From a virus, in IMG/VR virus record IMGVR_UViG_3300045988_128894, positions 24,731-88,730 of that record: DNA of 64,000 nucleotides; one strand, written 5' to 3'. The translations under genes were made by a program, and so were the position numbers. The notes beneath the pieces are model-generated. The model did no database searches, had not been told where the DNA came from, and saw only the letters and a program-made list of their open reading frames with translations. This document shows positions 1,316 to 44,909 of this stretch, in pieces. How positions within the stretch are numbered: position 1 is the stretch's first letter; every line of letters begins with the position of its first letter.

Positions 1316-1344
1316 TTGACAGAATCAGTAGTATCCTGTATTCT
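1316..1344 (+). promoter_or_regulatory. sigma70-like promoter (TTGACA-17-TATTCT) containing inverted copy of the 21-bp motif
   Basis: TTGACA 1316-1321, 17-nt spacer, TATTCT 1339-1344; motif GTATCCTGTATTCTATAGCTA 1331-1351. Confidence 0.45.
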
Positions 1345-1359
1345 ATAGCTAGAAAGGGC

Positions 1360-1385
1360 AGTCCGTCATAGGACTTTTATTTTTA
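1360..1385 (+). terminator. rho-independent terminator-like hairpin
   Basis: AGTCC-gtcata-GGACT stem-loop followed by TTTTATTTTT. Confidence 0.5.
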
Positions 1386-1390
1386 CCATA

Positions 1391-1411
1391 TAGCTATACA
1401 ATACAGGATAC
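1391..1411 (+). promoter_or_regulatory. 21-bp conserved motif TAGCTATACAATACAGGATAC (direct copy) just 5' of RBS
   Basis: one of 6 direct copies; followed by AAAAAAGGAG RBS and gene start 1433. Confidence 0.4.
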
Positions 1412-1432
1412 AAAAAAGGAGAGTCAACTGCT

Positions 1433-1981
1433 ATGGCTATGTACAAAACTAAGAAAGATGCAGCTTATGCATGGATTCAGGAGTTTAATGCGATTCCTCA
1501 GAGCGTTATTGAAAAGCTCGCCAAGGTCGATTTGGAAGAGAATGGTGAAGGCATTACCGAAATCACGCCGCCGTCTTGCTGTGATCATGTCTATATCTTT
1601 AGCGGTGACCACTATGGCAAAAATGGTGAGATTCGGAGCTACAACAAAGATGACAACACTTACAAAATTTGTCTCGACGGCACTGGCGAGGAAGTTGATG
1701 TCAGAGAAGATGATTTTGAAGTCGAGCGTGACGACTTCTTTCCGATGTGGGGAACGATGTGGCAGTTTGGCAATTCGTGTGATAACTGGTGGCTTGAAAA
1801 TCATCTTCAGGAAATGGCAGATTGCGGATTCCGTATCTATAAGCAAGAGGATTTTGAGTACGTTTTCGGCATTGATGGTTGTGGCTACGACTTTTACGAA
1901 TCTCATTGGATTCCGCTTTATGAAAAGCGTGGATTCCATTGGGATGATGAGACTGTAAAGGAGCTGGAAGAAAATGCGTAA
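1433..1981 (+). CDS. hypothetical protein
   Basis: 182-aa ORF, AAGGAG RBS, acidic/Trp-rich. Confidence 0.55.
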   Translation: MAMYKTKKDAAYAWIQEFNAIPQSVIEKLAKVDLEENGEGITEITPPSCCDHVYIFSGDHYGKNGEIRSYNKDDNTYKICLDGTGEEVDVREDDFEVERDDFFPMWGTMWQFGNSCDNWWLENHLQEMADCGFRIYKQEDFEYVFGIDGCGYDFYESHWIPLYEKRGFHWDDETVKELEENA

Positions 1982-2213
1982 GACGTTGCTTGAACGACTT
2001 TTGGATGCCGGATATCCGAAAGCAGAAATTTATCATCATATGTCCGACCTTTATGTTTTTGTAACACCGTTGACTACAAAAATTATTTCTGAATGGTGTG
2101 ATGAAAATGGGTATACGATGAACTTTCATTGTGCAAAATTCGTGGATCAGATTACGGGGAACATGATGTACGACTGTGTTTTTCAGTATTATGAGGTGGA
2201 AGAAAATGACTGA
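1974..2213 (+). CDS. hypothetical protein
   Basis: ORF overlapping previous stop; 79 aa. Confidence 0.5.
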   Translation: MRKTLLERLLDAGYPKAEIYHHMSDLYVFVTPLTTKIISEWCDENGYTMNFHCAKFVDQITGNMMYDCVFQYYEVEEND

Positions 2214-2367
2214 TATTCAGGAAAAGATGTGGGACGTGCTGGTTGAGATGTCCGGTGAGGATGTTGCAAGAGCGTTTGCAAATTTCTTTGGTAATCAGCT
2301 TTTGAACGAGGATTTCCATCAGTTTTTGGTTGATGAAGGTTATATGGAAAGCGAGGATGAAGAATGA
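2206..2367 (+). CDS. hypothetical small acidic protein
   Basis: GAGGTGG RBS before ATG 2206 (ATGA overlap with upstream stop). Confidence 0.45.
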   Translation: MTDIQEKMWDVLVEMSGEDVARAFANFFGNQLLNEDFHQFLVDEGYMESEDEE

Positions 2368-2603
2368 TCATTGATTCTATTCTTGACCGTAAGGACGGCA
2401 GACACTACAGTGCTCATGATTTCTATCTTGAGGTCAGGAAATATGAGCGTTTGGGTGTTGGGACAAACGGCGAGGATATTTCTATTGCAATGGATTACGG
2501 TGATAACAAAGATGTGCAGCGTGTTCTGTGTCAGTATATCCAGCGCAATGGATACCCGGCAGATATTGAGGACTACATAAGAAGTCAAGTCTGGGTGGTA
2601 TAA
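2364..2603 (+). CDS. hypothetical protein
   Basis: ATGA start/stop overlap; 79 aa. Confidence 0.5.
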   Translation: MIIDSILDRKDGRHYSAHDFYLEVRKYERLGVGTNGEDISIAMDYGDNKDVQRVLCQYIQRNGYPADIEDYIRSQVWVV

Positions 2604-2703
2604 GCAGCAGATGCTAGGTGATTAGCGGTACTAGGGCAGACATAACCGCTACCAATGCGAAAGCATGAACGAATACACACATGAAAATAAAGGAGATGGT
2701 GCT

Positions 2704-2907
2704 ATGAAAGTGGGGACATTGCTTAATCTGTTTGATGATTGGAACAAATATATCATCATCAACGACAATAGTTTGAATCGTCTGTATAATGCACGAACCA
2801 AAATCTTTGAATTTATGGACGAAAAAGAAAAGCATAAAGATTTACTCGGCAAAGAAATCGTATCGTTTGGACTTTACGACGATGATTTCTGCGTAAGAGT
2901 GAAATAA
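2704..2907 (+). CDS. hypothetical protein
   Basis: AAAGGAGA RBS before ATG 2704 (in frame with longer 2665 ORF). Confidence 0.45.
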   Translation: MKVGTLLNLFDDWNKYIIINDNSLNRLYNARTKIFEFMDEKEKHKDLLGKEIVSFGLYDDDFCVRVK

Positions 2908-2920
2908 AGGAGATAGCATT

Positions 2921-3112
2921 ATGGATAAAGAATATAACATTCCCGAATTATACGACAAGTACGGTCTCAAATATGAGATGAATTATGATGAGATTTGCTC
3001 TTTACTTCTCAAGAGAATTAAGGAAGACCCTAATTTTAACAACTATGTAAGGGCCGACTTGATTGATAAGCTGGGCTGGATTCACGACACGTTAATTGAT
3101 GAAACGTGGTAA
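2921..3112 (+). CDS. hypothetical protein
   Basis: AAAGGAGA RBS. Confidence 0.5.
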   Translation: MDKEYNIPELYDKYGLKYEMNYDEICSLLLKRIKEDPNFNNYVRADLIDKLGWIHDTLIDETW

Positions 3113-3130
3113 ATAAAAGGAGTGTTAGGT

Positions 3131-3421
3131 ATGAAGAAGTTTAATTCGACCTCAAATAAAGGATTCAATATGACTTTTGCAAATGGTATTACTGCAAGCG
3201 TCCAGTGGGGAACTGGGAATTACTGCGATAACTATTTTAGTAAAGACTTCTCTTTCTCAAAAGAAGCAAGTTCTAATACAGCAGAAGTGGCCGCATGGAA
3301 TGAAAACGACGAATGGGTTACAAATAAGTTCTGCGACACCTGTGATGATGTTGCTGGGTATCTCTCCCCAGATGAAGTGTTGCAGTTTTTGAATAGCTGT
3401 GCAAATTACAAAACGGCTTAA
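3131..3421 (+). CDS. hypothetical protein
   Basis: AAAGGAG RBS before ATG 3131. Confidence 0.5.
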   Translation: MKKFNSTSNKGFNMTFANGITASVQWGTGNYCDNYFSKDFSFSKEASSNTAEVAAWNENDEWVTNKFCDTCDDVAGYLSPDEVLQFLNSCANYKTA

Positions 3422-3456
3422 AATCATGCTTTTACAATGACTAGGGAGATTACAGA

Positions 3457-3660
3457 ATGAAACCATTAAGAGATAATCCTATCGAAGAAGGAATAGATGC
3501 TTTCTTTGAAGAAAAACAAAGACTCGAAGAAGAAAAGCAAAAACTCGAAGAAGAAATCAGAGATTACGAACAGGATTATTTGGACCGATATTATGATTGG
3601 TTAGAGGAGGAAGAACAAGAGTGTCGTTTAGAACTTCTTAATGACCTTTACAATGACTAA
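3457..3660 (+). CDS. hypothetical acidic coiled-coil protein
   Basis: GGGAG RBS; E/K-rich repeats. Confidence 0.5.
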   Translation: MKPLRDNPIEEGIDAFFEEKQRLEEEKQKLEEEIRDYEQDYLDRYYDWLEEEEQECRLELLNDLYND

Positions 3661-3672
3661 GGAGGTTACATT

Positions 3673-4104
3673 ATGACCTTTGAACAGTACAAGAAGAATC
3701 GTCCATTCTTTTCTGATCCGTACTATGTGAATATTGTAGAAAGAGTAGAAGAACAGTTCTTCTCTATTCCGGCAGAAAAAATTCACGATACAGAGAACGA
3801 ACTTCCTCATAAACTTAATTTTGGAACTCTCGGTGAATCAAAATATCTTTCTGTTCCTTGTATTGTATTTATGAGTGATGGCACAGAGTATGGAACGTAT
3901 GTTGATATCGCTGGTTATTATTGTTATCAAGATAATCAGTGGTATTTTGATCGCATTGATGTTAGTAGAACGCTGTCTCTGCATGAAGTGTATAGAAGAA
4001 AACCGACAGTTTTGAAGTGGGTTCCGTTGAAGATTGTCTGTGACGAAGACGAAAGAGATGATAGATGTTTTCAATACAATGGAGAACATTATAAAATCAT
4101 ATAA
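3673..4104 (+). CDS. hypothetical protein
   Basis: AAGGAGG RBS; 143 aa. Confidence 0.55.
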   Translation: MTFEQYKKNRPFFSDPYYVNIVERVEEQFFSIPAEKIHDTENELPHKLNFGTLGESKYLSVPCIVFMSDGTEYGTYVDIAGYYCYQDNQWYFDRIDVSRTLSLHEVYRRKPTVLKWVPLKIVCDEDERDDRCFQYNGEHYKII

Positions 4105-4124
4105 ACAAAAGGAGCTAGTACAAT

Positions 4125-4358
4125 ATGACTGAGAAAGATAAACGGATTCTAAAATACGCAATCGATAATCTTGTTCTTAGAGAAATCGAATTATGCAAAG
4201 GAAGTTGTAAAAGCAACCCTGAAAACAAAGCGAACCGTGAACGAGATCGTGAGTTGATTATTTATGGTATTCACAGCGTTTTATATGAGGTTGAACGTCT
4301 TGAAGAACAGGAAAAGGAGATGCTGGAGAAAGTCAAACATGAAGTGGTTCAGTTTTGA
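4125..4358 (+). CDS. hypothetical protein
   Basis: AAAGGAG RBS. Confidence 0.5.
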   Translation: MTEKDKRILKYAIDNLVLREIELCKGSCKSNPENKANRERDRELIIYGIHSVLYEVERLEEQEKEMLEKVKHEVVQF

Positions 4359-4372
4359 TTGGAGTGATAAAA

Positions 4373-5144: not shown

Positions 5145-5156
5145 GATAGGTGGAAT

Positions 5157-5556: not shown

Positions 5557-5557
5557 A

Positions 5558-5737: not shown

Positions 5738-5741
5738 TAAA

Positions 5742-6254: not shown

Positions 6255-6258
6255 TAAA

Positions 6259-19937: not shown

Positions 19938-19966
19938 TTGACTTCTGAAATGGTATCCTGTATAAT
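19938..19966 (+). promoter_or_regulatory. canonical sigma70 promoter (TTGACT-17-TATAAT) containing inverted 21-bp motif
   Basis: TTGACT 19938-19943, TATAAT 19961-19966; GTATCCTGTATAATATAGCTA 19953-19973. Confidence 0.6.
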
Positions 19967-20009
19967 ATAGCTATGGAACGGAGCTACACTATTATAGAGG
20001 AGAAAAACT

Positions 20010-20429
20010 ATGGACAACAATATTGACCCAAAGGTCGGAGAGGTTTGGTTGGTCGATTTGTCCAATGCAACAGGTCATCAGCAGCGCGGTATTCGACCGT
20101 TCGTTGTGACAAGCAACAACAAGCGCAACTTCTTCAGTCCCACAATCAAAGGGAATCCGTTGTCTTCCAGAATATACAAGCGTTCTCCGGTTCATGTTCT
20201 ACTCTCGAAAGAAGACTGCGATTTCCTAGAGGTTGATAGTATCGTTCTTTGTGAAGAGACTGATACACTTAACAAAGGACAGTTCATCAAAAAGCTTGGT
20301 GTCTTGTCTGAGCGTCATATGAATATGATCGCAATGGCAAGATGCAAGGATGAACCGTTCTTACTCGCAGCATTCCTGAGCGGCGTACAACATACTATGG
20401 AATTTCAGAATTTTGCCGCATTTGCTTGA
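20010..20429 (+). CDS. mazF: MazF/PemK/Kid-family endoribonuclease toxin
   Basis: GEVWLVDLSNATGHQQRGIRPFVV almost identical in pattern to Kid/PemK N-terminus GEIWLVSLDPTAGHEQQGTRPVLIV; AGAGGAG RBS. Confidence 0.8.
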   Translation: MDNNIDPKVGEVWLVDLSNATGHQQRGIRPFVVTSNNKRNFFSPTIKGNPLSSRIYKRSPVHVLLSKEDCDFLEVDSIVLCEETDTLNKGQFIKKLGVLSERHMNMIAMARCKDEPFLLAAFLSGVQHTMEFQNFAAFA

Positions 20430-20482: not shown

Positions 20483-21409
20483 ATGCTTACTGAAGAGAAA
20501 ATCAACGCTTTTGCCGAAAAGTATTCTGATAGAAGCGGTGAGTTTGTTGTATCGACACTTAACCATGTTATGGATTACGAGGCCGAGCGTGGGTATGAGT
20601 TGTTTGACTTCACAAAAGATGATTTTGTAAAGATGTTTGCCAAATACAATTGGGTGAATTCAAGTCGGTCGTTCAGAAATGTAAAGTCAATAATTACAGG
20701 TTACATCAAAAGTGAGTATCGAGCGAGCATGTATGACTTGGCTGAATTCTCGGAGAGCGACGTGAGTTCAGACAATATGTACGAGGACAAGTATTTTGCG
20801 TCAGCTGATGAGTTTGTTGATTTCTTGGACAAGTATGAAGAACCATATCAGATTCGTATGAACGTGATTGCCGTGCTGTACTGGATTGGTCTTACTTCCG
20901 AAGAGGTTTCTAATCTGACAATTAACGATGTTGATTTTGAATCATGTACTGTTCTGAATAAGACCGGTGTTGACGCGAGATTGATGAATATCATTAAGCA
21001 GTGTTATGAAATGAAACAATACGATGCTCCAAATATGGGAGGATACAGAACGTTTTATGTCATAAATGGTGATTACATTCTTCGCAAAACAGAGGATAGA
21101 ACTGGTGCAGACAGTGATTCAAGAATGTCTACAAATACGATTCATAGTTATTTCACGCGCTTGAATGATATTCTCGAAAGAAGATATCATTCAAAGGCTT
21201 TAGACCGAAGACATCTGACCAGAAACGGCGAGTATGTCAAGGTTTATAACTACTGTAAAACTCATCCAGAATTTAATCTTGCAGAACTTAGTTTCGGAAA
21301 TGGTAAAGATCCTCTTGCGGACATTATCGGAAGAAAGTGCAGCAAGGTTGCCTACATTAGTTTCCGGCAAGGATACAAGGGCTGGATCGAATACTTCCAC
21401 AAAAATTAA
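20483..21409 (+). CDS. hypothetical 308-aa protein
   Basis: AAGGAG RBS; no confident domain call. Confidence 0.55.
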   Translation: MLTEEKINAFAEKYSDRSGEFVVSTLNHVMDYEAERGYELFDFTKDDFVKMFAKYNWVNSSRSFRNVKSIITGYIKSEYRASMYDLAEFSESDVSSDNMYEDKYFASADEFVDFLDKYEEPYQIRMNVIAVLYWIGLTSEEVSNLTINDVDFESCTVLNKTGVDARLMNIIKQCYEMKQYDAPNMGGYRTFYVINGDYILRKTEDRTGADSDSRMSTNTIHSYFTRLNDILERRYHSKALDRRHLTRNGEYVKVYNYCKTHPEFNLAELSFGNGKDPLADIIGRKCSKVAYISFRQGYKGWIEYFHKN

Positions 21410-21413
21410 AAAC

Positions 21414-21437
21414 AGGGGGCTTCAGCCCCTTGATTTT
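21414..21437 (+). terminator. rho-independent terminator
   Basis: GGGGC-ttca-GCCCC hairpin followed by TTGATTTT. Confidence 0.65.
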
Positions 21438-21444: not shown

Positions 21445-21465
21445 TAACTATATAACACAGGATAC
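21445..21465 (+). promoter_or_regulatory. 21-bp motif copy TAACTATATAACACAGGATAC (direct); TTGATT 16 nt upstream of its TATAAC
   Basis: direct copy; possible -35 TTGATT 21429-21434. Confidence 0.4.
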
Positions 21466-21497
21466 AGAAAATAGTATTTGAATGGAGAATGATAACA

Positions 21498-23564
21498 ATG
21501 TCTGATTTCAAGAAATTTCGTGCACTGCTGCAGGACCACTTCAATGAGATGGTGAAGGGCGAAAACCCTCTGTTTATCACCGATGCAGACGAGGATGAAC
21601 TGTATAATCTGTATCTCGACAGCTTCCCAGCTGGCACGAATGAGTTGTTCCGTAAGCGGCGCGAGTATGACTGTTCCTGCTGCCGCCGTTTCGTAAAGAA
21701 CATCGGTAAGCTGGTTTCCTTTATGGATGGTCAGATGGTTACCGTCTGGGATTTCGATACCAAGTCCGATGTTTATCAGCCGGTTGTGGATGCGCTGGCT
21801 GCCTATGTGAAAACCTGCGCTGTTGTGAACCCGTATTACGTCAGCCGCAATATGATCTCTGATAGCAAGTTTGGCACTGAGATGAACTATGAGTATGACG
21901 CTGATCATAAGGCGGTTCATACCTGGGATCATTTCGTTGTCGAGATTCCTCAGCGGTTCATTGTGCGTCCCGATGACGTACCTACCAAGATGGCTCAGTG
22001 GCGTGATTCCGCCAATGTGTTCAAGCGCTCTCTGGAGGAGCTAACCATGGATGCCGTGGACACCGTGCTTGAGCTGATTGCGCAGAACAGCCTGTATCGC
22101 GGTAAGGAGTTTGAATCTCTGGTTCGTGGCTTCAAAATCGATAAGCAAGTGTATGATCGTCTGCCTGATGAAAAGAAGTCCGCTTATGTTTGGATGGCTC
22201 CCGGCGGAGCTTCGATGAACCGGCTTCGCATCCGCAATACGGCAATCGGTACTCTGCTGGTGAACCTGAGCGAGGGCATGGACGTGGATGCTGCTGTGTC
22301 TGCGTTTGAGGCCATTGTTGCTCCCGCCAACTATAAGCGTCCTAAGGCGATTTTTACCAAGAAGATGCTGGAAGACGCACAGAAAACCGTCACTGAGTTG
22401 GGCTATATGAACAGTCTGGGTCGCCGGTTTGCTACTCTGGACGACATCACCGTAAATAACGTTTTATTCTGTAACCGAGACGCAGCCCCTCGTATTACTG
22501 GCGCTGTGAATCCGTTTGAAGCAATGGCGAAGACTGTCGCAATCGATCCTAAGAAGTTCGGCCGCGCAGAGGAAATCGGTATTGATAAGTTTATCAAGGA
22601 CGTGCTGCCCACCGCGACTGGTCTGGAACTGTTTATGGAGAATCGGTTTGAGAAGAATATGACGTCTCTGATTGCTCCGCAGGATAAGAACGCGCCGTCT
22701 ATGTTCAAGTGGGCGAATGGTTTCAGTTGGGCGTATACGGGTAACGTGGCTGACAGCCAGATCCGTGAGAACGTCAAGAATGCAGGCGGTAAGGTTGATG
22801 GCGTGTTGCGTTTCTCTATTCAGTGGAACGATAAGCAGTGCGAGTGGGATGAAAATGACCTTGATGCCCACTGTGTTGAACCGAACGACGTTGAGATCTA
22901 TTTTGGCAACAAACGAGATTGGAGTACTGGTGGCAATCTGGATGTAGATATTATTCATCCTGATCGCGATGAGGCCGCTGTTGAGAATATTACATGGCCT
23001 GACATCAAAAAGATGAAGGATGGTAAATACGAGTTCTTTGTTCATTGCTTCTCTAACCGTGGCGGCAAAACCGGCTTCCGCGCAGAGATTGAATTTGATG
23101 GTCAAATCTACTCCTTCAATTACAATATTCCGCTGCGTCAGACTCAGAATGTTTCTGTTGCTACTGTTGTGTTGAATGATGGGCAGTTTACTATTAAGGA
23201 ACATCTCAATAGTTCTACTTCTTCCCGTGAAATCTGGGGTGTGAATTCCAATCAGTTTGTACCGGTGTCCGTAGCAATGTATTCTCCGAACTACTGGGAC
23301 GAGCAGAGTGGTAACGGTAATCGTCATTACTTCTTCATGCTCAAGGATTGTGTAAACCCTGAAAAGCCCAATGGATTCTACAATGAATTCCTGAAGGCGG
23401 AACTGCTACAGCATAAGCGAGTATTCGAGGCTCTTGGTTCTCAGATGGCAGTTCAGTCGGTAGATGACCAGCTGTCCGGCGTTGGGTTCTCTGAGACGAA
23501 ACATGATTCCTTTGTTGTCAAGGTTCAGGGCGCTACTGAGCGGGTTCTGAAAGTTGTTATTTAA
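21498..23564 (+). CDS. large hypothetical protein (689 aa)
   Basis: GGAGA RBS before ATG 21498; CSCC cluster near N-terminus; no recognisable catalytic motifs. Confidence 0.55.
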   Translation: MSDFKKFRALLQDHFNEMVKGENPLFITDADEDELYNLYLDSFPAGTNELFRKRREYDCSCCRRFVKNIGKLVSFMDGQMVTVWDFDTKSDVYQPVVDALAAYVKTCAVVNPYYVSRNMISDSKFGTEMNYEYDADHKAVHTWDHFVVEIPQRFIVRPDDVPTKMAQWRDSANVFKRSLEELTMDAVDTVLELIAQNSLYRGKEFESLVRGFKIDKQVYDRLPDEKKSAYVWMAPGGASMNRLRIRNTAIGTLLVNLSEGMDVDAAVSAFEAIVAPANYKRPKAIFTKKMLEDAQKTVTELGYMNSLGRRFATLDDITVNNVLFCNRDAAPRITGAVNPFEAMAKTVAIDPKKFGRAEEIGIDKFIKDVLPTATGLELFMENRFEKNMTSLIAPQDKNAPSMFKWANGFSWAYTGNVADSQIRENVKNAGGKVDGVLRFSIQWNDKQCEWDENDLDAHCVEPNDVEIYFGNKRDWSTGGNLDVDIIHPDRDEAAVENITWPDIKKMKDGKYEFFVHCFSNRGGKTGFRAEIEFDGQIYSFNYNIPLRQTQNVSVATVVLNDGQFTIKEHLNSSTSSREIWGVNSNQFVPVSVAMYSPNYWDEQSGNGNRHYFFMLKDCVNPEKPNGFYNEFLKAELLQHKRVFEALGSQMAVQSVDDQLSGVGFSETKHDSFVVKVQGATERVLKVVI

Positions 23565-23962: not shown

Positions 23963-24042
23963 AATAGACATTTTATCGTGATTTTTGTTGAAATAATTAA
24001 CGAAGATACGCTATAATTTTGAGGTAATTTTGATGAAAACCT

Positions 24043-24699
24043 ATGAAAAAAATCGAAACGGTGTTCAATCGTGACATCGAAGGTACTAAAAAGTTGATTA
24101 TCGGTGATTTCCGCAGTGAGACCATCGAGTTCCTACAAAATAACGAGTGGGAATTTACTGAGAAAGTGGATGGCACGAATGTGCGTGTTTGCTGGGACGG
24201 TCACAAAGTCAGCTTTGCTGGACGAACTGAACGTGCCGAACTTCCTAAGAATTTGGTGGATGCACTAAATAAAATTTTCGGTACTTCTGAAGCAGAGGAA
24301 TTGTTTGAACAGACTTACGGTGATAAAGAAGTAATCCTCTTTGGAGAGGGTTATGGTGGCAAAATTCAAGGATGCGGTCATGGATACCGACCTGACGAGT
24401 GGTTCATCTTGTTCGATGTCCTGATTGGTGATAACTACCAGAGTAGAGAGTGGGTCAAAAAGACTGCTCAGATGTTTGGCATCCAAGCGGTTCCTGTTTT
24501 ATTCACAGGGACGATTCGAGACGGTATCAAGTTTGTATGTCGGCATCCGAAGTCTACGATTTCGATTGGTGGCATTTATATGGAAGGTCTAGTTGGTCGG
24601 CCAAAAGTTGAATTGAAAGACCGTAGAGGTAATCGAGTAATTGTCAAAATCAAGTGGAATGATTTCAAGGATATCGCTGATACGCTTGGTAATGAGTAA
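24043..24699 (+). CDS. small nucleotidyltransferase-fold polynucleotide ligase (RNA-ligase-like, KxDG)
   Basis: motif I EKVDGTN, motif IV-like GEGYGGK, motif V IVKIKW; 218 aa minimal ligase; sits immediately 5' of tRNA array. Confidence 0.5.
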   Translation: MKKIETVFNRDIEGTKKLIIGDFRSETIEFLQNNEWEFTEKVDGTNVRVCWDGHKVSFAGRTERAELPKNLVDALNKIFGTSEAEELFEQTYGDKEVILFGEGYGGKIQGCGHGYRPDEWFILFDVLIGDNYQSREWVKKTAQMFGIQAVPVLFTGTIRDGIKFVCRHPKSTISIGGIYMEGLVGRPKVELKDRRGNRVIVKIKWNDFKDIADTLGNE

Positions 24700-24738
24700 T
24701 TAAGACATTTTCTTCCTCCGAAAATGCCCTGCGCGGGG

Positions 24739-24768: not shown

Positions 24769-24856
24769 GCCGCAGTGATGGAGTGACATACATTTCCCGC
24801 TTAAACCGGGACGCCTGAAACACGGATCGTGGGTTTGAATCCCACCTGCGGCACCA
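24769..24856 (+). tRNA. tRNA-Leu (anticodon TAA), type II with long variable arm, CCA encoded
   Basis: acceptor GCCGCAG/CTGCGGC, anticodon stem TCCCG/CGGGA with loop CTTAAAC, T-arm GTGGG-TTTGAAT-CCCAC, A73+CCA; D-stem only 3 bp. Confidence 0.65.
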
Positions 24857-24859
24857 TAT

Positions 24860-24933
24860 CCAGAATGTAGTGTAATGGCAGCACGCTGCGTTTGGGACGC
24901 AGAAGAGCGATTCGAATTCGACATTTTGGACCA
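24860..24933 (+). tRNA. tRNA-like, anticodon TGG (Pro) but degenerate T-stem; possibly pseudo-tRNA
   Basis: acceptor CCAGAAT/ATTTTGG (one G-U), perfect anticodon arm CTGCG-TTTGGGA-CGCAG, canonical TTCGAAT T-loop but T-stem only 3 bp, CCA encoded. Confidence 0.4.
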
Positions 24934-25028
24934 GTGGAGTATTCCACTTGCTTTTCATGAATACCTTCCTATTATTCTTGGCTCTCCAAAAAACGGAGCA
25001 GTAGGACGCAGCAAGCCAAGTTACATAA

Positions 25029-25118
25029 TGAGGGTTCGCCAAGTGGTAAATGGCATCTGGCTTTGACCCAGACAGCGTGCTTTATAGCCGATCGTCGGTT
25101 CGATCCCGACACCCTCAA
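25029..25118 (+). tRNA. type II tRNA (long variable arm, A73) with anticodon TTG
   Basis: 7/7 acceptor TGAGGGT/ACCCTCA, D-arm GCCA-agtggtaaa-TGGC, anticodon arm TCTGG-CTTTGAC-CCAGA, ~21-nt variable arm, T-arm GTCGG-TTCGATC-CCGAC; no CCA. Confidence 0.6.
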
Positions 25119-25123
25119 TTTAT

Positions 25124-25212
25124 GGACACGTGATGGAATCGCAGACATGAAAGATTTAGGCTCTTTTGCCGTTAACAGCGGTGTGCCCGTTCAAATCGGG
25201 TCGTGTCCACCA
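25124..25212 (+). tRNA. tRNA-Leu (anticodon TAG), type II, CCA encoded
   Basis: acceptor GGACACG/CGTGTCC, anticodon arm AAAGA-TTTAGGC-TCTTT, variable arm with GCCG/CGGT stem, T-arm GCCCG-TTCAAAT-CGGGT, A73+CCA. Confidence 0.65.
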
Positions 25213-25316
25213 TTATCAACTTATGGTTGCGTACCGTTTTGTTGATCTCCTTTGACCACTATTATTCCCAGCTCGCCAGTGATGGTGCAGTAGTGCTTTG
25301 CAAGCTGGGTTTTCAT

Positions 25317-25391
25317 GCAGCGGTCGTACAACGGCTAGTACATCAGCCTTCCAAGCTGAGGATGAGGTTTCGACTACCTTTCGCTGCTCCA
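25317..25391 (+). tRNA. tRNA-Gly (anticodon TCC)
   Basis: acceptor GCAGCGG/TCGCTGC, D-arm GTAC-aacggcta-GTAC, anticodon arm TCAGC-CTTCCAA-GCTGA, T-arm GAGGT-TTCGACT-ACCTT, CCA encoded. Confidence 0.7.
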
Positions 25392-25579
25392 GTCTTGTAT
25401 GGGTAGGATCTTTAGCGGTCAGATCCGGCCGCGCCTGTTCAAGATACCACCCCGAAAGGGGCGAGATATAGGAAATGTGCATCGCTGTTATTCCTTCCTC
25501 GTCTATATGGTATAGATGCAATAGTGTTTTATAAGGAAGGTTCCCAGTTGAATAGTTGCAGCTGTTTGACTGGTAATAT

Positions 25580-25655
25580 GGAATAGTAGCTCAGTTGGTT
25601 AGAGCCGACAACTTATAATTGTCAGACGCGAGTTCAAATCTCGACTATTCCACCA
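25580..25655 (+). tRNA. tRNA-Ile (anticodon TAT)
   Basis: acceptor GGAATAG/CTATTCC, D-arm GCTC-agttggtta-GAGC, anticodon arm GACAA-CTTATAA-TTGTC, T-loop TTCAAAT, CCA encoded. Confidence 0.7.
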
Positions 25656-25758
25656 GCCCGAAAGGGTGTACATAGAATCTGCTAGAACTTTTGTTTTATA
25701 AGCGTTGAAATAATATGACGTTGATACGTCTATTGTTTTTCGCTTATTCTCTGAGATT

Positions 25759-25779
25759 TAGCTATGTAACACAGGATAC
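25759..25779 (+). promoter_or_regulatory. 21-bp motif copy TAGCTATGTAACACAGGATAC (direct) upstream of methyltransferase gene
   Basis: followed by AAAAGGAGG RBS. Confidence 0.4.
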
Positions 25780-25806: not shown

Positions 25807-27261
25807 ATGGAAGTATTTGCGAGATTGATGGTTCTAAGATTGAACCTGTCTCGTGTATCACTGGTGGTTCACCTTGTTAGCCAAGATCTTTCTATTGCCG
25901 GTAAGCGGGCAGGTTTGGCTGGAGAACGGTCTGGTCTATTTATGGAAATGATTCGTGTGATAAAAGAAATGAGGGATACCACCAATGGAGAATATCCAAA
26001 ATTTGCAATCTGGGAAAATGTTAGAGGAGCACTCTCCTCAAACAACGGAGAAGACTTCCGATGTGTCTTGGAAGAATTTGCACACATCGTCGAAGCAGAC
26101 GCTACAATTCCTAAACCTTCGGAAAAAGGTGGAAAATGGTCTAAATCCGGCGCAATTTCCGGTAATGGATGGTCTTTGGCATGGAGACTCTTCGATGCTC
26201 AATACTGGGGAGTGCCCCAACGTCGTCAAAGAATCGCGCTTGTCATGGATTTTGGAGGACAACGTGCCGCAAAGATATTATTTGAGCGCACGGGCGTGCC
26301 AGGGAATTCTGACGAGAGCATCCCGACGTGGCAAGGTGCTGCCAGAATTGCTGAAAAATGCATTGTTGGAAATGATCGAGTGGTGGGAGAAAAAAGCTTT
26401 TGTATCGTCGGAAACATGATTGACAGAGAAACCAACATGAATGGGACTGGTGTAAAAGAAGATACTGCTTTCACTATAAACACTATTGACCGTAATGCTG
26501 TTGCCTACACTTTAAAGATTCGTTCAGGATGCGAAGGTGGTGGCAAAGGCGCACTGGTACAAATCGAGAAGAGCGCAACGCTTTCTACATTGCAAGATCA
26601 AACGTTAATTTGCTTGGCAGACAACACCTCTTTACATAATTCAAAACAAAAGATTTCGCCGGTGGTGTTTGAGAGTCACAGTCAGGATGCTCGATACACT
26701 CAACAGGGCGACACAAGTCCGGCTTGTACGGCTCAATGGGGGACTGGTGGCAATAATATGCCGCTTGTTGCTGAAAAGAAAACCTTTGCAATGCAACGCA
26801 TTGGTGAATACAAGGAAAGTGAACAAGCTAGTACGATGAAATCTCGTGACTACAAGGATGCTACTGACTTGATTGCAGAGAAGGAAACGAAGAATCTGCA
26901 ATGGATTGTTCGTCGCCTGACTCCTGTCGAGTGTGAACGACTTCAAGGGTTCCCTGATGGATGGACTGATATTGGCGAGTGGGTTGATGAGAATGGTAAA
27001 AAGCACAAACCAGCTGATTCTCCTCGTTACAAGGCGCTCGGCAATTCGATTGCATTGCCTCAGTGGTATTGGATTTTCCAGAAAATGAAGCCGTATATCG
27101 GTGAGAATCCTACGCTTGGCAGTCTTTTTGATGGAATCGGTGGCTTTCCGCTTGTCTTTGAAAGTACGTATGGTGATGGTACTGCTATCTGGGGATCTGA
27201 AATTGAACCGTTCTGCGTTGCAGTAACTAAGAAGCATTTTCCAGAAAAGCAAGGAGGATAA
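25807..27261 (+). CDS. C5-cytosine DNA methyltransferase with permuted/scrambled motif order and disrupted PCQ motif (probably non-functional as annotated)
   Basis: ORF contains motif IV tail QDLSIAGKRAG, motif VI FAIWENV, motif VIII QYWGVPQRRQR, motif IX RLTPVECERLQGFPDGW, motif X LGNSIALP and then motif I LFDGIGGFPL at its C-terminus; GGSPC of motif IV lies upstream (25863-25877) in another frame and is followed by TAG. Confidence 0.55.
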   Translation: MEVFARLMVLRLNLSRVSLVVHLVSQDLSIAGKRAGLAGERSGLFMEMIRVIKEMRDTTNGEYPKFAIWENVRGALSSNNGEDFRCVLEEFAHIVEADATIPKPSEKGGKWSKSGAISGNGWSLAWRLFDAQYWGVPQRRQRIALVMDFGGQRAAKILFERTGVPGNSDESIPTWQGAARIAEKCIVGNDRVVGEKSFCIVGNMIDRETNMNGTGVKEDTAFTINTIDRNAVAYTLKIRSGCEGGGKGALVQIEKSATLSTLQDQTLICLADNTSLHNSKQKISPVVFESHSQDARYTQQGDTSPACTAQWGTGGNNMPLVAEKKTFAMQRIGEYKESEQASTMKSRDYKDATDLIAEKETKNLQWIVRRLTPVECERLQGFPDGWTDIGEWVDENGKKHKPADSPRYKALGNSIALPQWYWIFQKMKPYIGENPTLGSLFDGIGGFPLVFESTYGDGTAIWGSEIEPFCVAVTKKHFPEKQGG

Positions 27262-30200: not shown

Positions 30201-30221
30201 TAGCTAAGTAATACAGGATAC
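30201..30221 (+). promoter_or_regulatory. 21-bp motif copy TAGCTAAGTAATACAGGATAC (direct)
   Basis: followed by ATAAGGAG RBS and ATG 30237. Confidence 0.4.
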
Positions 30222-30236: not shown

Positions 30237-30530
30237 ATGCAGAATACTCTTGAGTATACCGCTTATAATGGTATGAAATTTTACATTGTCTATATCGAAG
30301 CGCTTGAAAAGGAACCTGAAGAAGACTCTCCGATGATGTCTATTGTGTTTACTACGCATCCTGAGATTATTGCAGAAGCTAAAGCCGACGCGGAATGCAA
30401 TGGTGGTGCTGTTCCGGTAGGGTGTAAAGACCTTCTGGTTGATAGTGTGGATAACATCACCCGTCAGTTGGATTATGTTGCTCATGCAGTTGAAACGGGT
30501 GATCCGTGGTATGAGTGTTTGAAAGTTTAA
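30237..30530 (+). CDS. hypothetical protein
   Basis: AAGGAG RBS. Confidence 0.5.
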   Translation: MQNTLEYTAYNGMKFYIVYIEALEKEPEEDSPMMSIVFTTHPEIIAEAKADAECNGGAVPVGCKDLLVDSVDNITRQLDYVAHAVETGDPWYECLKV

Positions 30531-31712: not shown

Positions 31713-32404
31713 TGGAACTTACCCGTAAATGTATGATTTGCGGGAAGAATATTTTCATCGAGCGAGACCGTAGCACGTTTTTCTACGACAAGACTGGTTT
31801 TTGTCATAAGGATTGTTTTGTAGAAAAAAAGAAAAATCAAAAACGCCCTTGGACAGATGACCTGCTAAGGGCATTTTTTGACAAAGCAAAACCCGCTACG
31901 GATAAAAAGGTCGATGATCTTCTTTCCAAAAAGAGAGAACAAGACCACAATCGTGAGCTTGCACATATCAAACAGGAAGAAAAAAAGATTCTTTTCGACC
32001 ATATTCGAGATACATACGCCCCGGCGGTTGTTCCTGGTAGCTTCTACTCGAAACTTACGCAGTTGATTTCCGGTAATTATTACAAATATAGAGGTTCTAT
32101 TCCTCCGCTAGAACTCTACGATATGTGGGTTCTAGCGAAACCCCGACTAGATAAGATAATTGCCGAGAAAGAAGCAAAGGGTTGCGATATGAGCCAGCGA
32201 TGGAATTACGACTTGGCTATTTTGCTGGCTCAATATCCTAGTTATCTCGAACGAAAAGAAAAACTAGCTTCGATTCGCAGTGAAAGCGAGGGCAAAACGA
32301 AGGAAAATTTGACTGAAACGGTACTGAAACGGATGAAAACAGCACCGAAACAGAGTAAAAACGAGAATGAAATCGATATAAGTGCAATTCTCGATGAGAT
32401 ATAA
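31712..32404 (+). CDS. hypothetical protein with N-terminal zinc finger (possible helicase-loader position)
   Basis: CMICG...CHKDC; immediately upstream of DnaB-like helicase. Confidence 0.45.
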   Translation: MELTRKCMICGKNIFIERDRSTFFYDKTGFCHKDCFVEKKKNQKRPWTDDLLRAFFDKAKPATDKKVDDLLSKKREQDHNRELAHIKQEEKKILFDHIRDTYAPAVVPGSFYSKLTQLISGNYYKYRGSIPPLELYDMWVLAKPRLDKIIAEKEAKGCDMSQRWNYDLAILLAQYPSYLERKEKLASIRSESEGKTKENLTETVLKRMKTAPKQSKNENEIDISAILDEI

Positions 32405-42100: not shown

Positions 42101-42407
42101 GGCATACGAGTACATTCAGGATTTCTCAGAGATTGAGAGTGGCGACTCTTGTGTGCTGGTTGGTATTATCGCAAAGATTCAGAAGAAGAAAACAAAGACT
42201 GGTATGCAGTTTGCATTTGTAAATCTGTACTCTGGTGATGGTATCATTGAGCTAACTGTGTGGCCGAGAATCCTTTCTGATTATCAGGATTTGATTGTTA
42301 AGGGAAGTCAGGTAGCTGTGCTTGGTAAGAAGGAAGATGATTCGCACGTTATTGCAAATGACTTCAAGCCTTACAAGCAATGGCTGCATGATAGAGAGAT
42401 AAGGTAA
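39192..42407 (+). CDS. dnaE: DNA polymerase III alpha subunit (DnaE-type, PHP domain)
   Basis: N-terminal PHP HTHSNYSLLDG; core GPGRGSAAGSLVCYLIGIT...ERKDLPDVDVD; 1071 aa. Confidence 0.85.
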   Translation: MSSSLHTHSNYSLLDGYSSPEENLKRASELGLKAVAITEHGEVTSWPYYSELKDKYPNVKLLYGIEAYECENREVKDKNSKYWHLIIIAKNEAGRQAVNRLSTLGHLHGFYSRPRITKEDIAKEDTNNLIILSACLASRLSRTDDYNACIKLVQEYKSLFPHYYLEVQAHANSEQAKYNQKIMRLANDTHTKVVVTNDVHAATKEDLYYQDYFLRIAHDTETAAEIYEGCYFMSREEQHRVLDSQIGYEAAEWCINNTDEVADLCDDVDMPWHEPELPKIEIPPQYSNSAAYLKDLVKEGWKKRGIDKFDAEKQKIYRKRVDDELFVIEKKDFCDYFLILVDYINWCKQNDVIVGPGRGSAAGSLVCYLIGITQLDSIKYELDFGRFLTIERKDLPDVDVDVSDRAKVVEYLTQKYGEDRVVQVMNIVYTTPVTSIQDVGKVLGFPYAEIRKISEKFVQKTWKDCLDANPEVAENPKYKELLDIASHINGRPRGYGIHAGGVIVCRHPYYEYIGIRHGTDGEHVISVDKVMDEKIGLVKFDILGVASLVAIDEAKREDNIPDWEIDINNPEFENDKATYDLICSGRTDNLFQIESSGMKDLVAQLQPRSIEELSALIALYRPDAMPSIPTYVDCKYHPEHIHYFHPDMEPIFRSTYGVNIYQEQSMKLTKVFGGRNDAGADRMRKCLAKKKPEKVKEEVELLYDEILANGYDKATAEYICDELSTKGGYGFNKSHSQAYAVICLQTAYLKTHHPLAFFKAMLNLNKAKVGKVNKIMVDARSFGVQVLPPSINRSGMDFTVSNGKILFGLSAIGGIGDTLADAIIAERDKNGKFKGLDDFTSRVRATKAQIIALVKSGAIPTKNKRAFLEKYIASGLEQSEFKPVSTLPTKAVLLSKWDIDTEHYKVGKKVDKETVLRIYNEKRRVVYETEKLKKKEAYMTEQSEKYLKDEQFWEFQTLQTFIIDKNPFEKAYEYIQDFSEIESGDSCVLVGIIAKIQKKKTKTGMQFAFVNLYSGDGIIELTVWPRILSDYQDLIVKGSQVAVLGKKEDDSHVIANDFKPYKQWLHDREIR

Positions 42408-42419
42408 GAGGGTTGTAAG

Positions 42420-44750
42420 GTGGCAGATAAGAAATTTAATGAAAATATGATCCGTTGCTATATCAGGATAAAACGAGTCTTTTATCCGAAAGATGGGAGG
42501 GAGGTGGAGCCCGGCGGCTTCGCCACTTTCTCTGCCGAGGTGGTAAAAGTCAAGCAGGGAAATCCTGTTATGAGTCGATACAGTGACCTCCGGTTAAAGG
42601 GCAACGTTCCTAGCCTCGATATGAATAAAACTTATTCGTTCTGTGGTGAGTATGTTCATCATGAAAAGTTTGGTGACCAGTATAAAATCATTTATATGAA
42701 TGAGTTTCAAGAGATTACTGACCCGGAAGAACAGAAAAGCTTTCTCCATTATATCCTGACCGACCATCAGTTTGAGATACTTTATGAAGCATTCGAAAAT
42801 CCGTATGAGATTATCAAGAATGGTGATATCAAGTCGCTTTGCACTGTTAGTGGTATTACGGAAGGCAGAGCTCAAAAGATCATTGATACTTATGAAAACA
42901 ACATTGATAACAGTGAGGCGTACACAAAGCTAATTGAGTACGGTCTGACCCCTAGTGCTATTGAAAAGCTTGTCCGTCAATATCATGGTGCAGACACTCT
43001 GGTGAGAAAGATTGAAGAGAATCCTTACGTCCTGATTGACGATGTGTATGGCATCGGCTGGAAAAAAGCTGATGCTCTTGCTTTGAATATGGGCTTAAAG
43101 CACAATTCGCAATTCAGAATCGAAGCTTACGTCATGCATTTTCTTGCTGCCCGTGCCGAAGAAGGAAACTCTATTATCCCGGCAAACCAGACAATCAATA
43201 GCTGCATCAAGGAACTTGATTTGAATGAGGGTGACCAAGAAGTCATCAAAAGGGCACTTTTCCATCTGCACGATGTCCGTGAAACACTTTGGTGGAGTGA
43301 TGACCGTCAGGAATTTGCTTTAACTAGAGTGTGGAATCTGGAAGGTGAAATCGCAAAGGAAATCAAGCGACTGGCGGATGCACCTGTTGATCCGATTGGT
43401 CGAAATATGGACGTAGCAATCAATGAAGCCGAGGATGAACTTGGTATCGAGTACACTGAAGAGCAGAGAGATGCTATTAAAAAGGTATGCTCTAACAATA
43501 TTGCTATCGTCACAGGTCTTGGTGGATGCGGTAAAAGTACCGTTGTCGCTGGTGTCTTAAAGGTTCTTCGTGGTAAGTCTTTTGCTCAGACTGCACTTTC
43601 TGGTCGTGCCGCAGCTCGTATGCAGGAGATTACTGGTCAGGACGGTAAGACCATTCATCGTCTTCTTGGTTATGATATTGAGAATGGTGGTTTCGTCCAT
43701 AACAAGGGCAATCCTCTTGAAGAAGACATTATCATTCTGGATGAGACCTCTATGGTTGGAGCTCAGTTATTCTATGACTTGATTCAGGCAATCGAGACCG
43801 GCAAGCGATTCATCATGATTGGTGATGACGGCCAGCTTGAGAGTATCGGTATGTGCAACATCTTCAAAGATATGCTTGCATCTAAGGTTGTTCCTGTAGC
43901 TCGTTTGACTAAGATCCATCGTCAGGCAGCTAAGTCTGCAATTATTACGGAGAGCATCAAGGTTCGTAATGCTACACAGTTGGTTCCTTATGGCTGGGCT
44001 GGCAATGAGGTTCGTGGTGAACTTCGTGACTTGGAGCTTGATATCTATAAGGATGCAAGTGAGTCATTCAACCACATCATCAATCAGTACCGTACCTTAT
44101 ATAATAAGGTAGGGAATGATAGTGCGAAGATTCAGATTGTACTTCCACAGAAGCTTCGTGGCAGTATCTGCACCTATGAAGTCAATAATGCTATTCAGGA
44201 AATCGTGAATCCGAGTAGTGGTCAAGCAGAAGCAAAGGTCACAATCTATGGTGATGGCAAGGATAGAGTGTACACTCTGCGTGAGGGCGATCAGGTTATT
44301 ATCAACAAGAACAACTACGAACTTCATACATATAATTTCAAGACAAAGAAAAAGGAAGAGAAGTGTCCGGTGTTCAACGGAAACCGTGGCATTATCCGAA
44401 AGATTGAGAATAGCTTTATTCTGGTTGATTTTGACCAGTGGGGCACGATATTTATTCCTCATTACTTTGGTGGGAATAACATCTGGGCAACGCTTGAACT
44501 TGCTTATGCTCTGAGTTGTCATAAGCTGCAGGGCAGTGAAGCACCGTATGTGATTGTTGGCATGGACAACTCCGCATATCTGATGTTGACAAGAGAATGG
44601 CTCTATACGGCTATCACTCGTGCCAAGAAGTATTGTGTGATTTGCGCCGAAACTCACGCTCTTGATCGGGCTGTAAAGACTTCGAGAGTTCCATACAAGC
44701 GGACGTTCCTGAAGGAATTTTTACGGAAAGAATTTTCAGAGAATCATTGA
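42420..44750 (+). CDS. RecD-like (RecD2/TraA family) ATP-dependent DNA helicase
   Basis: Walker A VTGLGGCGKST, motif II IIILDETSM, C-terminal LTKIHRQ; GTG start. Confidence 0.75.
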   Translation: MADKKFNENMIRCYIRIKRVFYPKDGREVEPGGFATFSAEVVKVKQGNPVMSRYSDLRLKGNVPSLDMNKTYSFCGEYVHHEKFGDQYKIIYMNEFQEITDPEEQKSFLHYILTDHQFEILYEAFENPYEIIKNGDIKSLCTVSGITEGRAQKIIDTYENNIDNSEAYTKLIEYGLTPSAIEKLVRQYHGADTLVRKIEENPYVLIDDVYGIGWKKADALALNMGLKHNSQFRIEAYVMHFLAARAEEGNSIIPANQTINSCIKELDLNEGDQEVIKRALFHLHDVRETLWWSDDRQEFALTRVWNLEGEIAKEIKRLADAPVDPIGRNMDVAINEAEDELGIEYTEEQRDAIKKVCSNNIAIVTGLGGCGKSTVVAGVLKVLRGKSFAQTALSGRAAARMQEITGQDGKTIHRLLGYDIENGGFVHNKGNPLEEDIIILDETSMVGAQLFYDLIQAIETGKRFIMIGDDGQLESIGMCNIFKDMLASKVVPVARLTKIHRQAAKSAIITESIKVRNATQLVPYGWAGNEVRGELRDLELDIYKDASESFNHIINQYRTLYNKVGNDSAKIQIVLPQKLRGSICTYEVNNAIQEIVNPSSGQAEAKVTIYGDGKDRVYTLREGDQVIINKNNYELHTYNFKTKKKEEKCPVFNGNRGIIRKIENSFILVDFDQWGTIFIPHYFGGNNIWATLELAYALSCHKLQGSEAPYVIVGMDNSAYLMLTREWLYTAITRAKKYCVICAETHALDRAVKTSRVPYKRTFLKEFLRKEFSENH

Positions 44751-44775
44751 CAATTATGTGCGTATCCTGTATAAT
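44747..44775 (+). promoter_or_regulatory. canonical sigma70 promoter (TTGACA-17-TATAAT) containing inverted 21-bp motif
   Basis: TTGACA 44747-44752, TATAAT 44770-44775; GTATCCTGTATAATATAGCTA 44762-44782. Confidence 0.6.
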
Positions 44776-44788
44776 ATAGCTACAAAAA

Positions 44789-44820
44789 GTCTCCATCCCG
44801 GAGGCTTAAAATTCTCTCTT
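44789..44820 (+). terminator. terminator-like hairpin GTCTCC-atccc-GGAGGC plus T-rich tail
   Basis: 6-bp stem with one G-U, followed by TTAAAATTCTCTCTTT. Confidence 0.4.
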
Positions 44821-44841
44821 TAGCTATACAATACAGGATAC
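44821..44841 (+). promoter_or_regulatory. 21-bp motif copy TAGCTATACAATACAGGATAC (direct, identical to 1391 copy)
   Basis: followed by GAAGGAAATGG and tiny ORF. Confidence 0.4.
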
Positions 44842-44850
44842 GAGAAGGAA

Positions 44851-44865
44851 ATGGCTTGCTCGTAA
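44851..44865 (+). other. 4-codon leader ORF (MACS) whose stop lies in the loop of a terminator hairpin
   Basis: GAAGGAAA RBS, ATG GCT TGC TCG TAA embedded in hairpin. Confidence 0.25.
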
Positions 44866-44884
44866 CGACAAGCCTTTCTTTATT
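44853..44884 (+). terminator. rho-independent terminator GGCTTGCTCG-taa-CGACAAGCC + TTTCTTTATT
   Basis: 9-bp stem (one bulge), T-rich tail. Confidence 0.6.
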
Positions 44885-44888
44885 AGCT

Positions 44889-44909
44889 ATAACTATATAA
44901 CACAGGATA
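44889..44909 (+). promoter_or_regulatory. 21-bp motif copy TAACTATATAACACAGGATAC (direct, identical to 21445 copy)
   Basis: followed by GCAAGGAGG RBS and ligase gene. Confidence 0.4.

Follow-up and report, generated by a model that had tools for sequence, protein, structure and literature searches.

The master repressor of Bacillus phage SPbeta, MrpR/YopR, has a tyrosine-recombinase fold and binds the SPbeta repeated element (SPBRE), as established by chromatin affinity purification sequencing (ChAP-seq) and electrophoretic mobility shift assays (Kohm et al., 2023, PMC10516654). Its ChAP-seq peaks lie at yorE, yonP(-yonO), yorM, and yopM(...mrpR), and the repressor's own operon, yopMNOPQR, carries an SPBRE at the yopM promoter (PMC10516654). 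In phage phi3T, SroF is a monomer that encircles DNA, with core-binding and catalytic-like domains forming a clamp, and reads 24 of the 26 bp of the asymmetric Phi3TRE box, which occurs many times across the genome (Chmielowska et al., bioRxiv 10.1101/2025.11.27.690993). Monomeric integrase-fold repressors of the MrpR/SroF type with genome-wide boxes have been studied only in Bacillus SPbeta-like phages. Here, a 64,000-nucleotide stretch of the virus record IMGVR_UViG_3300045988_128894 (positions 24,731 to 88,730; hereafter the window) is described that carries repeated copies of a 21-bp motif, TAGCTAWRYAAYACAGGATAC, at operon starts. The motif is probably, at a rough probability of 0.78, the operator box of an MrpR/YopR/SroF-family master repressor encoded at 20483-21409 of the window, as judged from sequence, a structural model, and analogy. 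Control of the SPBRE/Phi3TRE type in a gut phage is thus the most likely reading, not a new kind of promoter.

Extracted from the SPbeta sequence, SPBRE reads CAAATACAAAWAATATGTATATA. All eight copies found in 50 kb of SPbeta point to the downstream gene, and five of the eight end 25 nt or less from a ribosome-binding site (RBS). Some overlap or follow sigma-A promoters, and the yonX promoter lies between two of them. In the first 100 kb of phi3T, 17 stretches fall within 6 mismatches of Phi3TRE and share the core ATTTTATTTTTATTCT. Nearly all of these point toward the genes of their region, and at least four stand immediately 5' of an RBS.

The consensus TAGCTAWRYAAYACAGGATAC has four exact matches in the window. 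Allowing up to three mismatches yields nine matches, all with at most one mismatch, where shuffled sequences are expected to give 0.01. Scored with a weight matrix derived from them, the nine copies reach 31.6-34.5 bits; there are no weaker or degenerate copies in the 64 kb, where nothing else exceeds 10 bits. The 8-mer CAGGATAC likewise has no further occurrence in the window outside the boxes. Because of this gap in matrix scores and the restriction of the 8-mer to the boxes, the element is unusually sharp. Both scans confirm the nine copies in both orientations at operon starts that the initial annotation had reported. Its positions stand for all but the last copy, which starts at 44890, not 44889. 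The two pairs that it gave as identical over 21 nt (1391 and 44821; 21445 and 44890) are borne out, and a third can be added (19953 and 44762). All genes of the window lie on the plus strand; six boxes are therefore direct and three inverted. Boxes, associated promoters, and hairpins are, in order:

Promoter P1, 1316-1344, plus strand: sigma-A type, TTGACA-17-TATTCT.
Box 1, 1331-1351, minus strand: inverted; reads TAGCTATAGAATACAGGATAC on the minus strand and spans the P1 spacer, -10, and expected start.
Hairpin, 1360-1385, plus strand: AGTCCgtcataGGACT and a T-run, terminator-like, between boxes 1 and 2.
Box 2, 1391-1411, plus strand: direct; ends 5 nt before the RBS AAGGAGAG of the open reading frame (ORF) 1433-1981.
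Promoter P2, 19938-19966, plus strand: sigma-A type, TTGACT-17-TATAAT; precedes the mazF-like and repressor-like genes.
Box 3, 19953-19973, minus strand: inverted; overlaps the P2 spacer, -10, and start; putative autoregulatory operator.
Hairpin, 21414-21430, plus strand: terminator-like, after the repressor-like gene and 15 nt upstream of box 4.
Box 4, 21445-21465, plus strand: direct; precedes ORF 21489-23564 (691 aa, phrog_1735).
Box 5, 25759-25779, plus strand: direct; followed at 4 nt by the RBS of the C5 DNA methylase gene 25807-27261.
Box 6, 30201-30221, plus strand: direct; 3 nt before the RBS of ORF 30237-30530, head of the replication module.
Promoter P3, 44747-44775, plus strand: sigma-A type, TTGACA-17-TATAAT, 12/12 consensus; its -35 overlaps the end of the RecD2-like gene.
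Box 7, 44762-44782, minus strand: inverted; overlaps the P3 spacer, -10, and start site.
Hairpin, 44789-44805, plus strand: GTCTCCatcccGGAGGC, between boxes 7 and 8.
Box 8, 44821-44841, plus strand: direct; followed by an RBS and a four-codon mini-ORF that overlaps the hairpin 44853-44874.
Box 9, 44890-44910, plus strand: direct; followed at 3 nt by the RBS of the ATP-dependent DNA ligase gene 44924-46255.

The motif search proposed by the initial annotation was run on related genomes as well as on the window. Used as a query, the motif returned more than 115 stretches from IMG/VR contigs of 120-140 kb. Across about 340 distinct contexts in these relatives, 15 positions are nearly invariant and the centre is A/T-rich and tolerant. 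The box is long, asymmetric, and non-palindromic, and the flanks of the nine copies are unrelated to one another. Relatives carry three further boxes to the left of the window, consisting of a divergent pair and a copy before an RNA polymerase gene.

All three inverted boxes lie inside sigma-A type promoters with a 17-bp spacer and cover the spacer, the -10, and the expected start site. In this class, T-12, A-11, and T-7 are kept in 100% of 45 contexts. The placement of the inverted copies in sigma70 promoters, with TTGAC(A/T) at a 17-bp spacing, therefore holds at all three sites, but the first -10 is TATTCT and not the TATAAT originally given.

The direct boxes have a different setting. Five of the six end 3-5 nt before a strong RBS; the distance is about 20 nt at 21445, so that the spacing of 5-12 nt first assigned to every direct copy fails there, while proximity to the RBS stands elsewhere. 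Four of the six are preceded by a hairpin whose end lies exactly 15 nt from the box (1360-1375, 21414-21430, 44789-44805, and 44853-44874). Sequence inspection found no usable -35 at the direct copies, in keeping with the earlier remark that they lack a consistent one. Their -10-like centre keeps T-12, A-11, and T-7 in 78%, 78%, and 73% of 293 contexts. Box 5 lies 3' of a tRNA cluster and a hairpin (25717-25730), with a weak TTGATA-18-TATTCT (25721-25750) just upstream. An order of promoter, hairpin, direct copy, and gene had been described at two loci. It needs amending at 44747-44924, where promoter, hairpin, and direct copy are followed by a mini-ORF overlapping a second hairpin and by a further direct copy before the gene. 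The mini-ORF, ATG GCT TGC TCG TAA (44851-44874), has its own RBS and overlaps the stem of the terminator-like hairpin between boxes 8 and 9, an arrangement reminiscent of a leader peptide. No protein family was found for the product of ORF 1433-1981 (182 aa), behind box 2.

The operon started by P2 contains the candidate reader of the box:

MazF/PemK-like toxin gene, 20010-20429, plus strand: PF02452, 69.3 bits; first gene of the P2 operon.
Candidate box-reading repressor gene, 20483-21409, plus strand: 308-aa MrpR/YopR/SroF-like integrase-fold protein.

The 308-aa protein scores 21.4 bits against Pfam MrpR_N_CB, and a homologue 78% identical to it reaches 27.7, where the cut-off is 27. Nearly all of its homologues bear a precomputed PF22823 (MrpR_C_cat) annotation. 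No match to PF00589 was found in the 308-aa protein, whereas the 279-aa ORF 13870-14709 scores 59 bits. In a Foldseek search of the PDB with an AlphaFold2 model (predicted local distance difference test, pLDDT, 68), the five top matches are the SroF-DNA complex 9rd5 (the best), SroF-Sar 9rgl, MrpR 8a0a, and YopR 8bj6 and 8bpz, with probabilities of 0.96-1.0. XerA, Tn1549 Int, and Cre rank below them. Homology to MrpR/SroF is thus remote but consistent, and its support from sequence and modelling is moderate. There is no obvious antitoxin gene beside the mazF-like gene; the pairing of toxin and repressor-like genes is kept in a sister lineage, in which both proteins have diverged.

The sister lineage offers a natural comparison. 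The phage MT835544.1 carries a 691-aa gene 83% identical to that of the window, but no copy of the TAGCTAWRYAAYACAGGATAC motif. Together with three IMG/VR genomes, it has ACAAAGTCACTTTTCAATA in place of the window motif. Its cassette, built like that of the window, consists of a TTGAAA-17-TATAAT promoter with an inverted copy, a MazF-like gene, a gene for a 353-aa protein, a terminator, a direct copy, and an RBS. The 353-aa protein matches MrpR_N_CB weakly and does not resemble the 308-aa protein to any meaningful degree in sequence. Within IMG/VR, ACAAAGTCACTTTTCAATA occurs in three genomes of 141-148 kb, with four exact copies in each, and the 353-aa protein is found in exactly these three. 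IMG/VR contigs of this lineage include IMGVR_UViG_3300045988_119057, IMGVR_UViG_3300045988_122991, and IMGVR_UViG_3300029176_000050. The features located in this lineage are:

MT835544.1 (L116), 2454, 31678, and 33375: copies of ACAAAGTCACTTTTCAATA; also in L231-L243.
MT835544.1 (L116), 31729-32169: MazF/PemK-like gene.

By these sequence comparisons, the putative reader and its box are exchanged as one module between the TAGCTA and ACAAAGTCAC lineages. Joint exchange of a box and a repressor-like gene is expected of an immunity pair of repressor and operator. The direct ACAAAGTCACTTTTCAATA copies of the sister lineage are followed by a second conserved stretch, CCAAATAATGGAA.

The arrangement of the boxes resembles that of SPBRE in several respects. 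There too, about ten long, non-palindromic copies occupy distant intergenic sites, lying in or after sigma-A promoters, often right before an RBS and co-oriented with the gene, as the six direct boxes do. Individual sites also correspond. SPBRE at yorE is matched by box 6 at the replication module, the MrpR peak at yonP(-yonO) by the box that relatives carry 51 nt before their RNA polymerase gene, the peak at yorM (the unit after the polymerase gene) by boxes 7-9, and SPBRE at yopM...mrpR by box 3 at the repressor-like gene's own operon. The reader of SPBRE is an integrase-fold protein, as is the remotely similar candidate here. The box sequences themselves differ, CAAATACAAAWAATATGTATATA being unrelated to TAGCTAWRYAAYACAGGATAC. 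Whereas SPBRE is co-oriented with its gene in 8/8 cases, three boxes here are inverted within core promoters, and inverted/direct pairs stand 60 bp apart. The host also differs, being of a gut clostridial lineage and not Bacillus.

The phi3T system suggests how such a box may be read. A monomer reading an asymmetric box of about 24 bp, as SroF does, would explain the sharp 21-bp motif, and the SroF-DNA structure is the one that the model of the 308-aa protein matches best. Pairs of box and repressor specificity vary among related phages in that system, as they appear to do between the TAGCTA and ACAAAGTCAC lineages. However, Phi3TRE is A-tract rich, whereas the box described here has G/C-rich flanks, and a mazF-like toxin gene precedes the repressor-like gene here. 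No Sar-like antirepressor, LexA box, or arbitrium module was seen in this phage, although no search was aimed at them.

The phage lineage, by its gene content, is SPbeta-like, since relatives encode a YonO-like polymerase and Yon homologues and the replication genes follow the SPbeta order. The replication module behind box 6 encodes Sak4-like, DnaB-like, primase-like, RecJ-like, and PolIII alpha proteins, and its gene order is that of SPbeta yorE to yorL. More distant homologues of the polymerase adjoin homologues of YonK, YonJ, YonG, terminase, YonD, and YonV. The phage appears to be temperate: homologues of the 308-aa protein occur on contigs of up to 784 kb, which implies prophages and hence the need for a lysogeny repressor. 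The window comes from such an SPbeta-like phage, of about 130 kb, of gut Firmicutes, the host probably being Faecalibacterium.

Taken as operators of the 308-aa protein, the boxes would work as follows. A sharp asymmetric motif with a tolerant A/T centre fits a monomer with extensive direct read-out whose core-binding domain sits at the centre (10.1101/2025.11.27.690993). In the prophage state, the 308-aa protein would bind each box as a monomer. The sigma-A promoters are entangled with the boxes, P1, P2, and P3 each overlapping one; at these promoters, a bound box over spacer, -10, and start would exclude the host RNA polymerase. P2 drives the putative repressor's own operon, and its occupation would amount to autoregulation. 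At the six direct boxes, which stand 5' of the RBS but 3' of the nearest preceding promoter or terminator, the bound protein would stop transcription from starting or from continuing, probably as a roadblock. The lytic units so silenced would include the replication module, the ligase, the methylase, and the 691-aa gene, as well as the YonO-like polymerase gene in relatives. Left of the window, relatives have a divergent junction with two back-to-back boxes, each pointing outwards (L015 7045-7124), and a TTGAAT-17-TGgTATAAT promoter lies between the two in 71/71 contexts; this promoter would be shut from both sides. Induction would remove the repressor, perhaps through an antirepressor such as Sar in Bacillus phages, and open all units together.

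Several observations weigh against an operator read by the 308-aa protein. Boxes 4, 6, and 9 have no recognisable sigma-A promoter in front of them. Boxes 4 and 9 come after terminators, so that a pure operator at these sites would have to act as a roadblock or serve a promoter that escapes recognition. Every direct copy is oriented toward its gene, a regularity not required by an operator model free of orientation, although SPBRE and Phi3TRE show it as well. The box has no sequence similarity to either of these elements. The Foldseek template modelling scores are low, at 0.26-0.30, from a model with a pLDDT of 68, and the comparison of the 308-aa protein with YopR is not significant (BLASTP E = 0.74; hhalign E = 0.063). 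Finally, since host chromosomes carry an identical box, the reader could be a host factor. The system described here has three variant features: boxes inverted within core promoters, pairs set back to back, and the copy at host aroD.

The initial annotation had listed an operator or transcription-factor site among its options, and this option gains support from the MrpR/SroF-type gene, the SPBRE/Phi3TRE layout, and the joint exchange in the sister lineage. The same control logic is thereby indicated in an abundant clade of human-gut Firmicutes phages of about 130 kb. With this system come an operator that is precisely defined and open to testing, a candidate gene for the repressor, and an exchange of specificity that arose naturally between two lineages.

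An unlikely alternative, though the one that survives best, is that the motif is the promoter of a YonO-like single-subunit, two-barrel RNA polymerase. Direct copies would then fire downstream, and inverted copies would occlude host promoters or fire antisense. Relatives encode such an enzyme of 930 aa (PF05183, RdRP, 54.8 bits) about 10 kb left of the window, and its gene has a direct box 51 nt before the ATG in every relative examined:

L015, 1340-4132, minus strand: YonO-like polymerase gene.
L120, 6001-8793: YonO-like polymerase gene.

By synteny with these relatives, a YonO-like polymerase gene is inferred to lie in the present genome, outside the window. The 930-aa protein is 40% identical to its counterpart in Clostridium phage c-st, 38% to Enterocloster phage proteins, and 25% to SPbeta YonO, and more than 4,000 homologues are found in the protein database at E <= 1e-20. 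Other features agree with a promoter function. At the divergent junction, each of the two back-to-back copies points outward. Direct copies follow terminators, lack a -35, and break the sigma-A -10 rules that the inverted copies keep (78%/78%/73% against 100%). The sharpness of the motif matches that of T7-type promoters. The promoter sequence of YonO is undefined in the literature (PMC5467207), and other two-barrel phage polymerases, such as P23-45 gp64/gp96, use conserved motifs upstream of their starts (PMC10770324). If the motif were such a promoter, it would be the first promoter consensus for a YonO-type RNA polymerase.

Nevertheless, three copies oppose all genes of the window and lie inside host promoters, a use in both orientations that differs from the motifs of these enzymes. 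The box-before-RBS layout is, by experiment, that of a repressor site in SPbeta and phi3T. For SPbeta, a single YonO-dependent start has been reported (PMC5467207), and its primer-extension amplicon lies in the yonN-yonK gap, where the scan found no SPBRE. The repeat is exchanged together with the repressor-like gene of the same cassette, and an identical copy stands in a host promoter region. In addition, no copy occurs within the 6 kb downstream of the polymerase gene, where distant relatives keep late structural genes. The option of a phage RNA polymerase promoter, also raised at the outset, is accordingly disfavoured, by the three wrong-way copies in host-type promoters and by a YonO start in SPbeta that lies outside SPBRE. 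The amplicon defined by the published primers does contain TAGCT...ACAATATCTAC, with a different spacing, and was not counted as evidence. Phylogenetic footprinting at the site that precedes the polymerase gene gave no information, the members of the clade being too closely related. The yonN-yonK gap of SPbeta is a 1.7-kb ORF-free stretch (L119 2153-3835) that holds the YonO start site together with a non-coding RNA that carries no annotation. A stretch of about 2 kb without ORFs also adjoins the divergent box pair in relatives (L015 7130-9100). Homology between the two was considered and dropped, as BLAST found no similarity and Rfam gave no hit.

Slightly less probable again is a reading of the box by a DNA-binding protein of the host, Faecalibacterium, which would place early and middle phage units under host control in the manner of LexA boxes. 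It draws on a scan of one genome per species, in which the exact 21-mer occurs in four Faecalibacterium species, in DNA of host-type G+C content:

L211, 3648-3668: host box.
L215, 2344-2364: host box.
L217, 234-254: host box.
L219, 6654-6674: host box.

The host box follows a TTGACA-17-TATTAT promoter at 12 nt and precedes by 26 nt the ATG of aroD, which encodes a type I 3-dehydroquinase (DHquinase_I, 222.9 bits). It is identical to phage copies over 23-24 nt, with no other phage similarity around it. The remaining hits of the scan look like chance. These boxes point to Faecalibacterium as the host and suggest either that the prophage repressor controls a host gene or that a host factor reads the box. 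Against the latter, the strict pattern found just one host copy per genome, and the box, long and asymmetric as SroF boxes are, is unlike the dyad sites that regulators of the host usually read. The phage also has its own candidate reader, and the sister lineage exchanges reader and box together. If the prophage repressor does read the aroD box, lysogeny may tune a shikimate-pathway gene in Faecalibacterium, a keystone gut commensal. The idea that the host copy marks a prophage junction was rejected, as the contig ends read like a divergent ribosomal RNA operon leader, which Rfam did not confirm.

An action of the motif in RNA is very improbable. It could serve as a conserved 5' leader, as a cleavage site for the MazF-like RNase, or, at the two inverted/direct pairs, as a long stem that RNase III cuts in read-through RNA. 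In favour, transcription would place each direct copy just 5' of the RBS; there is also a MazF-like gene, and ACA occurs within the motif. Stems of about 20 bp are predicted for the pairs 1331/1391 (-34.6 kcal/mol; z = -7.9) and 44762/44821 (-36.0 kcal/mol; z = -7.5), in read-through transcripts only. However, transcripts started at P1 lack the left arm, and their fold is no better than that of shuffled sequences (z = -0.9). No partner exists for the single inverted copy at 19953 or for four of the direct copies. By itself, the 21-mer is unstructured (0 kcal/mol), and an Rfam scan of the window found tRNAs only and nothing at the motif. Conservation of the reverse complement in untranscribed promoter DNA needs a reader at the DNA level. 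The suggestion of a conserved 5'-leader RNA element thus finds no support, given the unstructured 21-mer, the missing Rfam match, and inverted copies that would not be transcribed in the right sense. Least probable of all is that the copies merely duplicate a host-type promoter cassette and have no reader of their own. In its favour, three of them are true sigma-A consensus promoters, and the motif centre is -10-like. Against it, the invariant parts GTATCCTG (in the spacer) and TAGCTA (3' of the -10) do not belong to the sigma-A determinants, the direct copies have no -35 and depart from the -10 rules, and the flanks around the copies are unrelated.

Two further ideas were discarded. An invertible promoter between the inverted pair was rejected on the grounds that the segment measures 38-39 bp and the -35 elements of P1 and P3 lie outside the pair. 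An attP/attB core was rejected as well, given more than 10 copies in the phage, none of them adjoining an integrase-like gene.

Repeats of other sequence occupy comparable places in more distant relatives. The window motif is absent from the cultured Enterocloster phage PMBT24 (L117+L118), whose RNA polymerase is 38% identical, and from relatives whose polymerase is 61% or about 50% identical. PMBT24 has a YonO-like polymerase, a SigK-like sigma factor, and two repeat families of its own. One, TTAAAAATAAATTTTAAAA, stands directly before RBSs in both arms; copies of the other, TTCAATTCGTAAAGTAAAA, lie in both orientations, often with a hairpin behind them. A relative with a 51%-identical polymerase carries GCTAATTATAC three times (L203 7922, 7970, and 9973), in an order of sigma-A promoter, motif, terminator, and motif, with a further copy before the polymerase gene.

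A near-identity DNA search of the window against GenBank phages gave no match, and no sigma factor was found among the 40 window ORFs scanned against Pfam. At the left end, window positions 2-1982 align with 12842-14793 of the relative L015 at 83% identity. The genes of the window include those for PolIII-alpha, RecD2-like, RecJ-like, DnaB-like, and Sak4-like proteins, the ligase, NrdD, ThyX, dUTPase, and several methylases. A canonical tyrosine-recombinase gene at 13870-14709 (279 aa; PF00589, 59 bits) may correspond to SPbeta YopP. The tRNA cluster (24769-25655) comprises six genes (Leu-taa, Pro, Gln, Leu-tag, Gly, and Ile-tat) and follows an RNA-ligase-like gene (24043-24699) as well as a TTGAAA-18-TATAAT promoter located at 23988. 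Among the nucleotide-metabolism genes, ORF 50199-51722 encodes a 507-aa SPFH/Band-7 and flotillin-like protein.

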